Virus record (IMG/VR): IMGVR_UViG_3300048573_000442
Origin: a virus
Direction: 5' to 3' (one strand)
DNA length: 64,000 bases
The notes under the pieces were generated by a model. That model saw only the letters and a program-made list of their open reading frames with translations. It did not search any database and was not told where the DNA came from. A program made the position numbers and the translations under genes. Within the stretch, counting starts at the first letter, position 1, and each line of letters begins with the position of its first letter. This document shows positions 28,968 to 34,757 of this stretch, in pieces.

Positions 28968-29693
28968 TTATTCCTGTGTTTTAAAATCTTCTCGCGCCTT
29001 AAGGAATTGATCGACTTCCTCTTGACTGTATTCGTGTGGCTTTAATACATTTGGCACCACACGTAGTAAACAATCTCCCCTTGAAACAGTTCGCGAATCC
29101 TTCCAGAGCCCACGACCTTTCACCTTTAACAAAGTAAGAGGCTTTATGCCAGATGGAATACGAACTTGCATAGTTGCCCCATCAACCGTCTTAAAGTGTG
29201 TAAAACCTCCTGACATCATCATAAAGGGCGAAACTTCAATGTTTGAATAGATATTGCCGATTTGATTGGGGTCGACTTCAAACTCTGGGTCATCAATTTC
29301 TACTGTTATCCAGAAAAGCGTGTTATCACATTCAAACGGCGGCAAAAGTTCATTTTGTCTAGCCCCCGCGGGGATTTGAATGCTCTCGATTCGCGAAGCA
29401 CCAATTTGAATCTTTTTAGCACATCCCGTAAAAGCTTCAAGCGCTGTTATCTTTACGCGCATTCCGGTGGTAAAGGCGGGGAATGCATTACGGGATTGTC
29501 GCGGCTTTGCCGTTAAACTTTCATAAGCTTCTGAAATCTCCTTAAAGGTTTCAGCATCACCGCCTTTATCAGGGTGATGTTTACTTGCTAGTTTGCGATA
29601 CGCCGCTTTAATTTCATCTGCGGTCGCATCCTTTTCAATGCCTAGAATTCGATAATAATTTTTCATTTCAGAAGTCCACAAGGCTTGATACAA
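28968..29693 (-). CDS. dnaJ: DnaJ-like protein (J-domain plus C-terminal domain)
   Basis: YYRILG...[16 protein letters not shown]; LKVKGRGL...GDCLLRV. Confidence 0.88.
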
Positions 29694-31041
29694 GAGCCTT
29701 TAATTCGCGCGAATACATTTTGTCAGCAGTGTCTTTTTCAAGTGAAGCTAAATGGTCTTTAAACCCGAGCAGCTCTTTTTCCAGTTCACTTATTTTGTCT
29801 TTAGTCAGATTCCAAATGCTCATGGCAAGTAGCCGCTCATATTCCGTAAACTTGTTACTAATAAGAAGTTCTATTAGATCTTTTTTGCCGGTATTTTTGA
29901 AAAGATTAGTATTCTTCAGGTAGAAGTTGATAAATCTAATCCGTTCAGATGCCCACGCAATATCAGCCTTGGCAACATCGATTAATTTCTGTCGACGGAT
30001 TTCAAACATTGAACTGCGCCAAGTTACGAATTCATTGACAACTTCTTCAGCATATTGCATTCGCCGAAGGATCCCGTCAATTCCCCACAGCGTAAAGTTT
30101 TCTGTGTCACGAGCAACCAATTTAAATTTCTTGTACAGCTCTTCAAGAGGTAATGCAGAAGTTGTTCGTGGGACTATGACAGTAAAGTCGAAACCATCTT
30201 CAGTTGAACGATCTTCATAGTCCTTAATGAATTCCTCATCCTCAAGCTTATTGAGATGTTCTTTATACTGGTCAAGATAAACGCCGATTGGCAATTCACT
30301 GATTTTGATAGTGGTAGTATTTACTACTTCCATTTTACCAGTGATAACGACTTGACCATTAATCTGATTGCGTTCGATGGAGCCTTTAAACCCCTTATAC
30401 CATGGGGTTAAACCCCCGTTAGTCAGGTTTTTGCCCTGTAAGACCGCCAGACACGCTGCAGCGATTTCTTTAGGGTTATAAGCCATAACCAAACAAGCGT
30501 GACCGGTGCCTGTTCCTTGCGCTCCATTGACTAATGTAATAGGCAACAGGGGCAAATAAGTTACTGGCTCAATTTTCTCACCATCTGTCTGATTGTATTC
30601 GAGAATGCAATCATCTGCCTTAGGGAATAGCATTCGGAAATAAGGTGTCAGCTTGGTCTCGATATATCGTGCAGCTGCTGGGTCAGCAGTGAGTCGCGAA
30701 CCAAATTGGCCTTCAGGTTCAAATAGGTTCATGTTATTGGAGCCAGCATACTTATTTGCTAAGCCGATAATAGTCGATTGCATCGACCCTACCCCGTGAT
30801 GGTAGTCAGTCGACGCAGCACAATGTGCAGAAAGCCGTTCGACTGAAAGTAAACCGGCATTTTCACCACGAACTTGGGTCCCGTGAATAGCTTTACGCTG
30901 GCTTGGCTTTAAGCCATCAGTCAATTTCGGAATGCTCCGAACGTTGTCATAAAGCGAAAATTCTTTAAAAGCGGTGTTAACGAAATTCCTCGCAGCAATT
31001 CTACGAATTCCAGAAGATTGGGGTTTCGGTTTGGCAACCAT
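29668..31041 (-). CDS. 52: Type II topoisomerase medium subunit (gp52/GyrA-like)
   Basis: [43 protein letters not shown]. Confidence 0.95.
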
Positions 31042-31186: not shown

Positions 31187-31796
31187 TTATTTCTTTGGTT
31201 GCGAAACAAAATCTTCAAAATTTCCAGCTGGAGTTTCCAACCAAGCTTTGCGATCATCTGCGCGATCGCCGCTAAATGCGAGGTCAATAGATTCTCGATC
31301 TTCTGGATCATCCATTGTGATCTGAAACAGGTACTTATCTGGATTTTCCATGTAAGGGATAAAATCTACAGTCTTAGTAGTTCCTAACCCCTTATAGTAA
31401 CGATGAGACCATCCTTTATTTTTTGAACCGGTTGTTTCTGACCAGTCTTTAAATTCTCGCTCAGTAAAGAATTCTAATACGCTTTTGTCCTTTAAGGTAA
31501 CTTTTACGACAGGGGTTCTAAGGATATGAACGAAACCCATGTCAAATAATTCTGGCCAGAATTTGTCAAACAAATTCATAAGGAGACCTGAAATATGTGC
31601 GCCAAAAATCCTAATATATTTTAAGTATGTAGATGGTTAGCCGAAGCTAACCATCTACATCGGAATCCGTTGCGAAAATGACCTTACCAAAATTAAGTTT
31701 TGGTGCACGACAGCGACTTACACCCTTAGTTTGTTTATAACCTGCCATTTGTGTTGCTGTAGGCTTGAGATTCCGTGATGTAACTTTGATTTGCAT
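31187..31796 (-). CDS. 60: Type II topoisomerase small subunit (gp60-like), interrupted by a 49-nt coding gap; predicted 186 aa via ribosomal bypassing
   Basis: 31796-31650 encodes MQIK...VIFATDSDVDG then TAG; after a 49-nt gap 31600-31187 resumes AHISGLLMNLFDKFWPEL...YYKGLGT...DDRKAWL, restoring the TOPRIM DxDxDG-x-HI motif. Confidence 0.9.
31601..31660 (-). promoter_or_regulatory. Translational bypassing (hop) cassette
   Basis: Take-off GGT 31652-31650, TAG 31649-31647, perfect 15-bp stem with C-UUCG-G loop (31627-31660), AGGA 31612-31609, landing GGC 31603-31601. Confidence 0.85.
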
Positions 31797-31824
31797 ATTT
31801 TACCCCTAAAAATTCTTAATACTA

Positions 31825-33450
31825 TTATAACAGCGAACTGATTTTAACTAGTGCTCCATCCACTTCAATAGAATCATTCTCGTTTACCAACTTCTTCACC
31901 CCATTAATTTCGATTTCAACCCATTCGCCGTCTGGCATTGGTTCAGTTTCTACTTTTTCTCCTATTTTCAAACCAATGATCGTTAAAATCTTTTGGATTT
32001 CATTAGGTTCAGTCTTACCTTCTTTTTTCTTGTCAAGCCCAAGAACGCGGGCAATCTCCTTTTGGCGTACATTAAGAAGCTTTCCTCGCAGGGGGTATGT
32101 TCCGATGTAGGGAGTTTTGCCACGCGCTGCAAACAAGCTTTTTGCGGCCGAATCCCCCTCCGCCAGCATCAAATTACAACGATATCGATCTTTCTTTTCC
32201 AGTGCATCGCAAAATTTATTTACTCGGCGATAATTTGTCTTCTCTACATCTTTATTCAGCTTGCGAAGTTCCTTCATTTCTTCTTGATGCTGCTTAGCTG
32301 CAGCCCAGTCCAAAATATTCTGAATAATACTCGACTTGATAATTTTGCTGATCATCTTGTCTGGAACTGCCCAACTTGTTTTGTAGTCTTTTACTTCCGT
32401 GATTAGATCATCTTTGGTTTGACTAGAATAGCGAGGATTAACAATAGAGCAATCAATGAACAATGTCATATGCTGACGCAATTCGGATGGTTTAATATCC
32501 GTTTTGAACTTCTTCTTTATATGCTCTCGAATTCGTTCCCAAATCTGCATTCCAGTATACATGACATGGGTCCCGCCGGATTTCGTATTAGTTCCGTTCA
32601 CAAATGAAATCTGCTGGAATCCGTCTTCAGAACTAGCAACTGCAATTTTCCAATGTTCAGTTTCATCATACGCATAGTCCTCGCCTTCAGGAATATACAT
32701 TTCGATATAATCTTTGAAACTTTTAGTTGGAATTCGTTCCCCATTCCAATACACTTTTAGATAGGGATTTAAACCTGCAACATCAGCTACACGCTTTTGT
32801 AGCATTGCCATGTTATCATCTGTTAAAGTGGTTCCCAAACGTGCCCAATCAGGGTAATATGTAATTCGCGTATAACCCTTAGAATCGGCCGCAGGAGTAA
32901 TTTTTGCAGTAGACCGACTTTGCGAATTTTCAGTAAACACCATTTTAAATTTGTTTTTGCTGTCGCATGTTTCAACGATGAACTTTGTTGAAAAGATGCA
33001 TGAAAGTGCCGAGCCCTCACCATTCTGCCCCGTGAGCATCGATTCATCGCTATCATCAAAATTTGAACCAGCACGCAGTTCAAAAATCATTTCTGGAATC
33101 CATTGGCCGTATTCTGCATGCTTGATAACGGGAATTCCACCATTATCGAAAATGCTGATAGATCCTTCTTCCTGATTTACATCAACTCGAATCGTATCGA
33201 GGCCTTTCCCCTCTGGCCGCTTAGAATGATCTACTGAATTAGAAATAATTTCATCAAACAGCTTAATGAAGCCAGGATTATATGTTACTTCGCGTTTTAA
33301 CATCCTCTTAGATAAAGGGTCATATGTAAACGCGTTTTCTGTATGAGGAGTGATCGCCCCAATATATCGACCAGGTCGAGTTAGAACGTGTTCAACTTCG
33401 TTTAGTTTTCGATATTTTTGTTCTAAGCTTTTATTCTTTTGCTGTGTCAT
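31825..33450 (-). CDS. 39: Type II topoisomerase large subunit (gp39; ATPase plus first half of TOPRIM)
   Basis: EHVLTRPGRYIG, FDEIISNSVD, DNGGIP, GQNGEG, AEGDSA, PLRGKLLN; ends before the DxD motif. Confidence 0.95.
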   Translation of the reverse strand: MTQQKNKSLEQKYRKLNEVEHVLTRPGRYIGAITPHTENAFTYDPLSKRMLKREVTYNPGFIKLFDEIISNSVDHSKRPEGKGLDTIRVDVNQEEGSISIFDNGGIPVIKHAEYGQWIPEMIFELRAGSNFDDSDESMLTGQNGEGSALSCIFSTKFIVETCDSKNKFKMVFTENSQSRSTAKITPAADSKGYTRITYYPDWARLGTTLTDDNMAMLQKRVADVAGLNPYLKVYWNGERIPTKSFKDYIEMYIPEGEDYAYDETEHWKIAVASSEDGFQQISFVNGTNTKSGGTHVMYTGMQIWERIREHIKKKFKTDIKPSELRQHMTLFIDCSIVNPRYSSQTKDDLITEVKDYKTSWAVPDKMISKIIKSSIIQNILDWAAAKQHQEEMKELRKLNKDVEKTNYRRVNKFCDALEKKDRYRCNLMLAEGDSAAKSLFAARGKTPYIGTYPLRGKLLNVRQKEIARVLGLDKKKEGKTEPNEIQKILTIIGLKIGEKVETEPMPDGEWVEIEINGVKKLVNENDSIEVDGALVKISSLL

Positions 33451-33501: not shown

Positions 33502-34188
33502 TTATCTTACCTTTTCTGCAACGTCAAAGAAATTTGACCCGTCGCGCCTAAGTTCGCCAATTTTGTGCCCGTCTATTTTGTAAGCTGCAGAAGGGATTAA
33601 TTTCCCAGTGTGGGCAACATGTGCTCCTAGAGAAATAAGTTGAAGTTTTTGTTCATCTGTCATTAACGGCAAAAGCTTTTTGCCAGCATGGGCAAACATG
33701 ACATACTCACCGCCTATGAGTTGCGCCCATTGCTTATCGGTTAGTTTTCGTCTTGCCAGAACGTAAAGCCATTGAAGTTTATTTTCAAACTGTTTTTCGG
33801 TTGCTAGTTTAAAGATCATTTCCCCGATGCTATCTTCATCGGGTTGAATATCGACTAAATCTTTGCCGCTAATAATAAAAAGGTAACCAATTCTTTCTTT
33901 CCATCGTAAAGCCATGCTTTTAGACCCTGCAACATCACCTCCCAACGCGTATATTTGGGCGTAGCCTATATCAGGGGTTATATACACTTTACCACTAACA
34001 GGGACGAGGTTTGGTTTTTTAGATGGCGACCTATTAGGCATTACCACATTGCCAGGCTCAATTCCATTTTTTAGAATGGATATGCCAGCTTCTTCTGATG
34101 AAGTGCCGTGATAGTAAACTATTTCCCGATGTGATTCTAATGGCTTAGCCATTTCCATCAGTTCATGTATTAGCATAAATTGCCCCAT
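33502..34188 (-). CDS. ADP-ribosyltransferase-like protein (H-Y-x clade); probable start at 34176 (MLIHELMEM)
   Basis: YYHGTS...ILKNGI...VYITPDIGYAQIYA. Confidence 0.6.
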   Translation of the reverse strand: MGQFMLIHELMEMAKPLESHREIVYYHGTSSEEAGISILKNGIEPGNVVMPNRSPSKKPNLVPVSGKVYITPDIGYAQIYALGGDVAGSKSMALRWKERIGYLFIISGKDLVDIQPDEDSIGEMIFKLATEKQFENKLQWLYVLARRKLTDKQWAQLIGGEYVMFAHAGKKLLPLMTDEQKLQLISLGAHVAHTGKLIPSAAYKIDGHKIGELRRDGSNFFDVAEKVR

Positions 34189-34307: not shown

Positions 34308-34757
34308 TTAAGAAATTGCTAAAAGCTCAAGGTAAAAGGCAAAGTATTTTTCCATGCGTTCCATATCCTTTTTTGATACTACTTTGAGGCGGCGAATATC
34401 TGTATTGTGCGTCAAGTCTGCTTTCTTGACCGTAATGGCATCAGCATTACTTTTCACCTTTTCTTTGTATTCTTCATAGCTTTCTCCTGGAACTTTAGTC
34501 AAGCACCTAATTCCATCAATAACGCGCTCGGAAAACCCAAGTTCCCGAAGTTCGCTATACGAAACGCCGCAATCTTCCACGATATCATGGCCTATAGCTA
34601 TACAGCGAAGTTCTTCATCCACATCACCAAGCAGGTACATTACCGAAAGTGGGTGCAATACGTAAGGATTACCGCCTTTATCAAATTGGCCAGCGTGCTT
34701 GTTGGTTGCAAGTACCAACATTTTGGAAAGTTGTTCGCCCTTCATAATTTTCTCCAT
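34308..34757 (-). CDS. HD-domain (p)ppGpp hydrolase-like protein (SpoT-HD/Mesh1 type)
   Basis: HAGQFDKGGNPYVLHPLSV...AIGHDIVED...VKKADLTHN. Confidence 0.85.
   Translation of the reverse strand: MEKIMKGEQLSKMLVLATNKHAGQFDKGGNPYVLHPLSVMYLLGDVDEELRCIAIGHDIVEDCGVSYSELRELGFSERVIDGIRCLTKVPGESYEEYKEKVKSNADAITVKKADLTHNTDIRRLKVVSKKDMERMEKYFAFYLELLAIS

Follow-up and report, generated by a model that had tools for sequence, protein, structure and literature searches.

The 64,000-nucleotide stretch analyzed here (IMG/VR virus record IMGVR_UViG_3300048573_000442; hereafter the window) carries, on its minus strand, a split gene for the large subunit of topoisomerase II. Its first part, ORF1 (31825-33450, minus strand), encodes a gp39-like N-terminal portion of 541 aa, C-terminal extension included, and matches phrog_543 over positions 17-504 of 661 (E 1.8e-129). 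The C-terminal extension (CTE) itself, 39 aa (31828-31944, minus strand), has no counterpart in unsplit relatives and is homologous to the gp39 tails of phages T4 and S16; over the last 50 aa, identity is 43% to T4 and 37% to S16, with invariant G-E-W, V-N-x-N-D and G. ORF1 and ORF2 are separated by a spacer of merely 28 nt (31797-31824, minus strand), in which an AGGGG ribosome-binding site can be read at 31807-31803, and no endonuclease gene lies between the two ORFs of the window. ORF2 opens at ATG 31796-31794 and, at exactly the coordinates originally predicted, runs for 49 codons to GGT 31652-31650, which is followed by TAG 31649-31647. This leader divides into 32 + 17 aa: an N-terminal extension (NTE; residues 1-32, 31701-31796, minus strand), identified by alignment to T4 gp60 as the nascent-peptide signal region (Y20-K21, V26, R28), and a segment termed homR (residues 33-49, 31650-31700, minus strand), which ends in DVDG and is homologous to parental TOPRIM residues about 503-519. 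The resumed part of ORF2 (31187-31600, minus strand; 137 aa plus stop) supplies the rest of TOPRIM together with TOPRIM_C, equivalent to parental residues about 520-653, and its homologues are recorded with PF16898.

The partner of the split large subunit, a gp52-like topoisomerase II medium subunit, is encoded at 29668-31041 (minus strand; phrog_551, E 1.1e-123). A DnaJ-like J-domain protein (28968-29693) overlaps the end of the gp52-like gene, and a small HD-domain phosphohydrolase (phrog_990; 34308-34757) is found upstream of the topoisomerase genes. Conservation of these two proteins extends to the related assemblies L001 and L002, and the L001 homologue of the HD protein gives a weak HD_4 match. 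For the 228-aa ORF directly upstream of ORF1 (33502-34188) we obtained no PHROG match at E <= 1e-5, and no tRNA genes were found in the window.

The leader and the resumed frame meet at an elaborate junction. The take-off codon GGU (Gly49; 31650-31652, minus strand) specifies the invariant Gly of DxDxDG, and the UAG stop codon (31647-31649, minus strand) is directly 3′ of it. Both codons are enclosed by a take-off stem-loop (31627-31660, minus strand), and the prediction of a perfect 15-bp hairpin at 31660-31627, with a UUCG loop closed by C-G, was borne out by reading as well as by folding. The landing codon GGC (31601-31603, minus strand) is located at the predicted distance of 49 nt and is preceded, again as predicted, by a mini Shine-Dalgarno AGGA (31609-31612, minus strand), 5 nt 5′ of it, and by five U. 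Counted by the T4 convention, from the stop codon through the landing codon, the coding gap is 49 nt (31601-31649, minus strand). GGU and GGC are both decoded by tRNA-Gly(GCC). After GGC the frame continues with the AHISGLL codons, reading AHISGLLMNLFD..., and is open to the stop at 31189-31187; reading this resumed frame confirmed that the joined parts complete the TOPRIM motif DVDG-AHISGLL.

A 91-nt region around the stem-loop has a minimum free energy (MFE) of -28.8 kcal/mol (z = -5.7), and 0 of 200 dinucleotide shuffles folded equally well. [quoted passage not shown] Across the whole gap, cognate triplets (GGU/GGC) occur only at position 8, inside the hairpin, and at position 47, the landing codon; the triplet buried in the hairpin has UAA directly after it. 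The window, L001 and L002, the latter two from samples SRR13225483 and SRR24908243, are independent assemblies, and all three have this structure, which excludes the assembly artifact that the original prediction had raised as a concern. A frameshift joining the two parts in the window was rejected, as the landing frame meets TAA four codons past take-off, with a stop at codon 9 in the third frame. An intrinsic terminator was likewise rejected as an identity for the hairpin, a terminator scan having found none. Folding of the flanks in search of a T4-like 5′ stem-loop or forward-slippage barrier gave nothing better than shuffles (z = +0.26 and -0.91), in agreement with the report that neither element of T4 is conserved (10.1101/2022.08.31.505936).

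Unsplit relatives define where this junction was inserted. In nine IMG/VR relatives (L003-L011), the topoisomerase II large-subunit gene is unsplit, about 645-667 aa long, and continuous through DVDG-(A/S)HI(S/A)GLL at the insertion point. ORF1 residues 1-502 align with unsplit residues 1-500 (at 77% for L007), and the joined ORF2 aligns from residue 33 with parental residues 503-653. The cassette is inserted at the invariant Gly of the TOPRIM DxDxDG, and the cassettes of T4 and S16 sit at the same aligned Gly. A further arrangement is seen in L032 (882-3058), where a 519-aa homing-endonuclease-like ORF (DUF7487) is intact between a CTE-bearing ORF1 and an NTE-bearing ORF2 of 185 aa; L032 has no bypass gap, and its junction reads GAT GGC GCT CAC.

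A search of 5.8 billion proteins with the 49-aa ORF returned two close relatives, and the corresponding search with the 130-aa ORF returned 47 proteins. About 25 of the latter are 113-132 aa long and mostly start at the Met of GLLMN, i.e. are cut as in the window, and about eight, of 183-189 aa, have the NTE and no gap. Searching 50,697 phage records at the DNA level gave no match to the window, and scanning the 49-aa leader against IMG/VR and JGI metagenome contigs gave no relative. The 18-nt hairpin core had seven matches in IMG/VR, none of them in a topoisomerase gene; these were set aside as terminator-like hairpins after tRNA or other genes.

We compared the cassettes of the window and of ten metagenomic relatives, taken from their contigs (n = 11). 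In all ten relatives the leader ORF is 49-52 codons long with a Gly codon and UAG at its end, and a hairpin, an A/U-rich stretch and a resumed (A/S/F)HI frame follow. UAG comes after the take-off Gly codon in 11 of 11 cassettes, and AGGA or AGAG stands 4-6 nt before the Gly landing codon in 11 of 11. The gaps measure 49, 49, 44, 49, 50, 45, 47, 44, 44, 46 and 45 nt and fall into all three frame phases, so that only a frame-blind mechanism, either a hop or physical removal, could serve all of them, and no joint frameshift could. In L002 (2084-2130), where the gap is 44 nt, no stop codon closes the -1 frame between the take-off codon and the resumed ORF; in that phage the parts could in principle be joined by a -1 frameshift as well, with about 15 extra residues, which is impossible in the window or L001.

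MAFFT misplaced the 3′ arm of hairpins with an extra C-G pair, and the stem pairs were therefore scored with a script that takes UAG/CUA as its anchor. The three take-off bases are paired in the stem in 10-11 of 11 cassettes, the pair at the take-off wobble base co-varies (U-A, A-U, G-C), and the second stem pair flips from A-U to U-A in L002. An inner stem is universal, and the outer stem, which brings the window to 15 bp, is common only to L001, L002, L021 and L029. [quoted passage not shown] A GGG take-off codon occurs with a GGC landing codon in L024 (2432-2479) and likewise in L025, from two independent runs, and with a GGU landing codon in L028 (2433-2479). Standard wobble rules would not let a single tRNA-Gly read both codons of the GGG/GGC and GGG/GGU pairs. 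Either a mismatch at the third base is tolerated on landing in these phages, or their hosts have a tRNA-Gly with four-way reading. All pairs known previously are identical or differ by G/A or U/C wobble (10.1101/2022.08.31.505936).

Relatives of the window also show other mobile elements at this locus. A homing-endonuclease-like ORF of 353-509 aa lies between ORF1 and ORF2 in L021, L023, L024 and L029. In L026 (2914-5390) and L030 (3649-5236), the gp52-like genes contain an intein (PF14890) with an adjoining endonuclease-like ORF, and L026 gives a faint NUMOD3 signal. Together, the gp52-like inteins and their adjoining ORFs mark the topoisomerase locus of this phage group as a hot spot for several kinds of homing element.

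The sequence of the gap has changed far less than the codons around it. Between the window and L001, 1 of 49 gap positions differs, against a flanking coding pS of 0.47-0.53; between the window and L002, 5 of 44 aligned gap positions differ, against a flanking pS of 0.65-0.74. A rough binomial test of gap conservation against flank divergence gives P < 1e-11. Judged by these comparisons, the gap is under nucleotide-level constraint, and a recent gene conversion, as opposed to selection, could explain part of the near-identity between the window and L001. The NTE and the downstream ORF show purifying selection, with pN/pS of 0.04-0.19 against L001 and L002, and pN/pS for the downstream ORF is 0.08-0.35 against relatives. 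These values weigh on the idea that what remains of a homing element here is in decay, with bypassing no longer efficient and the C-terminal part of the subunit on its way to loss. Decay would fit the disappearance of the endonuclease gene and the lack of conservation at some residues that are important in T4. It does not fit purifying selection on the NTE and the downstream ORF, nor a gap conserved far below neutral divergence between flanks that are near saturation at synonymous sites; moreover, no second copy of the C-terminal subunit part was seen in the ORF list of the 64-kb window. We consider decay highly improbable.

The start of the resumed frame raises another alternative. As originally described, the landing frame is closed upstream by TAA 31639-31637 and contains no ATG, GTG or TTG before ATG 31579. 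The accompanying statement that this ATG lacks a Shine-Dalgarno sequence was slightly too strong, since a weak AGG, made by Ser-Gly codons, is located 7 nt upstream. With ATG 31579 as the first canonical start in its frame and the weak AGG before it, the gene could be split in three, a 49-aa peptide ending at UAG and a 130-aa protein starting from ATG 31579, or from a non-canonical codon after AGGA, and then assembling non-covalently. This is how gene callers annotate the relatives, and split topoisomerases do assemble, as T4 gp39 and gp60 illustrate (10.1101/2022.08.31.505936). However, the seven codons from the landing site to ATG 31579 keep their peptide while changing synonymously (Ser as TCA, TCC, TCT or AGT; Leu as CTC, TTG or CTG), a pattern of drift indicating that they are translated. 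Position 31579 is itself occupied by TTG (Leu) in L002 and by Ile or Leu in the unsplit L008 and L009, which points to an internal residue and not to a start codon. The separate product would be without part of the invariant TOPRIM motif, no start codon occurs at a workable distance after AGGA, and a three-way split gives no role to the co-variation of take-off and landing codons. As the sole route to the subunit, such a split is very unlikely; some independent initiation of the 130-aa fragment, helped by the weak AGG, is possible.

Loss of the 49 nt before translation, through RNA splicing or processing, or their absence from part of the DNA population, would also repair the gene. Excising exactly these 49 nt restores the frame, and cassette-free alleles do occur in nature, namely in L032 and in MGS50, a virome sequence described below. 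Gaps of 44-50 nt are nevertheless too small for a self-splicing intron, Rfam returned only two sub-threshold chance matches with no curated family and no intron, and the gap is present in all three independent assemblies. The conserved UAG, the mini Shine-Dalgarno and the matched Gly codons are specific to a ribosomal mechanism. In addition, Huang et al. reportedly found in 1988 that the T4 mRNA retains the homologous gap and that ribosomes skip it. We consider removal extremely improbable.

The leader peptide resembles that of T4 in part. The window NTE aligns to T4 gp60 residues 1-29, with the Tyr-Lys of T4 KYK (Y16/K17) invariant, and leader residues Y20, V26, R28, F36 and T43 match Y16, V22, R24, Y33 and T40 of T4 gp60. 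Two T4 residues implicated in bypassing, Q19 and M39, are unmatched in the window (T23 and A42), and a Gln occurs one position earlier. The residues reported as conserved in the nascent peptide are, in T4 numbering, Y16, Q19, V22, R24, Y/F33, M39 and T/S40 (10.1101/2022.08.31.505936). The leader Tyr is invariant across all 11 cassette-bearing sequences. At the T40-equivalent position, reported as Thr or Ser throughout bypass sequences (10.1101/2022.08.31.505936), the leaders of L029 (2289-2435), L030 (2136-2282) and L031 (2285-2434) have Ala, reading AAD and not ATD.

The closest comparison is with T4 gene 60 and its mobA element. It is the same gene, interrupted at the same Gly codon of DxDxDG, with a homologous gp39 CTE and gp60 NTE; T4 also has the UAG, a UUCG hairpin enclosing take-off and stop codons, an A/U spacer, a mini Shine-Dalgarno some 5-6 nt 5′ of the landing codon and landing by the same tRNA-Gly that took off. 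The two differ in codon pair (GGU/GGC in the window, implying tRNA-Gly(GCC), versus GGA/GGA and tRNA-Gly(UCC) in T4), in gap length (49 versus 50 nt), in the stem obtained by the same fold calculation (15 versus 10 bp, with 4 versus 5 bp from UAG to the loop) and in the leader (49 versus 46 aa, 32% identical). Unlike T4, the window has no endonuclease remnant between the ORFs, and gp52 is directly downstream. Salmonella phage S16 gene 60 shares with the window a GGU take-off codon, UAG, a UUCG hairpin and a GGC landing codon, so a non-identical synonymous pair was already known; it differs in its 48-nt gap and MobA (HNH) endonuclease, and its NTE is 41% identical. Translational bypassing is also found at the mitochondrial 'byp' elements of Magnusiomyces capitatus, which are not homologous to the window cassette. 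The 'byp' elements have matched take-off and landing codons and a hairpin, and are unrelated elements in unrelated hosts with many insertion sites. To our knowledge, they have no Shine-Dalgarno or nascent-peptide signal.

The T4 family as described by Manning & Atkins (bioRxiv 2022) comprises 28 genomic and 13 metagenomic cassettes (10.1101/2022.08.31.505936). Their elements consist of a CTE, an endonuclease, an NTE (about 30 aa), homR (about 15 aa) and the cassette, inserted at the TOPRIM Gly or the preceding Asp. GGU/GGC pairs are listed for S16, Stupor, Abraxas, MGS1 and MGS12, gaps range from 20 to about 50 nt, and loops are UUCG, UUUG or GNRA. A mini Shine-Dalgarno (GAG/GGG/GGA/AGG) stands 5-7 nt before the landing codon, in A/U-rich surroundings free of premature landing triplets. 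MobA is replaced by GIY-YIG or VSR endonucleases in some elements, others have lost the endonuclease cleanly, and an endonuclease gene between the ORFs was not treated as obligatory (10.1101/2022.08.31.505936). The window agrees with this family in insertion site, CTE, NTE and homR, codon pair, UAG, stem-loop and mini Shine-Dalgarno, and not in an endonuclease. The original prediction of a rare variant with very few known examples therefore did not hold, as GGU/GGC pairs, other gap lengths and other nascent peptides had all been described in that preprint (10.1101/2022.08.31.505936), although the window sequence itself is absent from its files.

Two of the published metagenomic sequences stand nearest to the window. 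The published cassette closest to that of the window belongs to MGS11 (clade 11, Lake Kivu sediment metagenome), with a 24-nt stem-loop core identical to window 31655-31632, a UAG, an A/U-rich spacer, a purine mini Shine-Dalgarno and an NTE that is 43% identical, including Y-K-Q. It differs in having a 43-nt gap, a GGU/GGU pair, a shorter stem, a VSR-type endonuclease that has been kept, and a much more divergent ORF2 body. Weak Vsr/DUF559 signals in the endonuclease ORFs of the window's relatives recall those reported for clade 11 (10.1101/2022.08.31.505936). MGS50 ('clade 20', Pacific Ocean virome) is from nearly the same phage lineage as the window, with the same split, CTE, NTE type and gp52 neighbor; its ORF1 tail and ORF2 body scarcely differ from their counterparts in the window and L001. 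In contrast to the window, it is gap-free ('healed' according to the authors), and its ORF2 reads ...DVDG-AHISGLLMNLFD..., exactly the junction predicted for the window. Its leader is 69% identical to that of the window over 49 aa, with divergence far higher in NTE residues 1-32 than elsewhere in the protein. Compared across window positions 31825-32400 and 31187-31600, MGS50 and the window form a mosaic, in which the last ~160 ORF1 residues and the ORF2 body are almost identical and the N-terminal part of MGS50 ORF1 resembles a different parental type (like L004). Such a mosaic suggests recombination or co-conversion around the homing site.

Taken together, homology, the insertion site, cassette-free relatives and gap phases support the original reading of a take-off and landing bypass of the T4 gene 60 type. 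Our best explanation, to which we give a probability of roughly 87%, is that the window comes from an uncultured T4-like phage with a functional bypass cassette of the T4 gene 60 family in its split gene for the topoisomerase II large subunit; on this view, the cassette is what is left of a homing-endonuclease element after loss of the endonuclease gene. Anatomy, homologies of every part, conservation and covariation are there to be read, and from them we infer the hop and its efficiency. Translation would start at ATG 31796 and proceed through 49 codons, with the nascent peptide (Y20-K21, V26, R28, F36, T43) probably acting in the exit tunnel. Once GGU occupies the P site and UAG the A site, a hairpin tip of 4 bp and UUCG would form in the A site, and peptidyl-tRNA-Gly(GCC) would let go of the mRNA. 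The ribosome would then slide past the remaining hairpin and the A/U-rich spacer until AGGA pairs with the 16S anti-Shine-Dalgarno, setting the P site over GGC 5 nt downstream, where the same tRNA-Gly(GCC) could re-pair. Decoding would restart at GCA and yield one gp60-like protein of 186 aa with an intact DxDxDG-xHI TOPRIM motif, predicted to assemble with ORF1 and the gp52-like subunit and so complete the TOPRIM fold. The 15-bp stem, being longer than that of T4, could lower or change the efficiency of bypassing.

What is new here is limited but genuine: the published set does not contain this clade of at least eleven distinct cassettes, in which published generalizations meet two apparent exceptions, the GGG pairs and L032. 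The window, L001 and L002 are cassette-bearing sisters of the 'healed' clade 20 and are not in the preprint (10.1101/2022.08.31.505936), and the take-off stem of the window is the longest seen so far. For annotation, the 49-aa and 130-aa ORFs should become one gp60-like protein. Few recoding events are as extreme as programmed bypassing, and nearly all that is understood of how it works comes from a single sequence, T4 gene 60. The window and its ten relatives offer natural variants for the established T4 reporter and cryo-EM systems; their stems range from 7 to 15 bp and their gaps from 44 to 50 nt, and they include three Gly take-off codons, several tetraloops and divergent nascent peptides. 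The window lineage and the 'healed' MGS50 additionally form a before/after pair for following how the nascent peptide changes once bypassing is unneeded. A bolder possibility, which we advance tentatively and consider rather doubtful, is that these sequences represent an uncatalogued, species-rich clade of Topo2L cassettes that breaks published rules, by combining GGG with GGC or GGU, by having an endonuclease without a cassette and by keeping the cassette near-invariant long after loss of the endonuclease. If this were true, landing could rely on two base pairs, and selection on the cassette would reflect a function of its own, such as control of how much gp60-like subunit is made, in addition to protection of the homing site.
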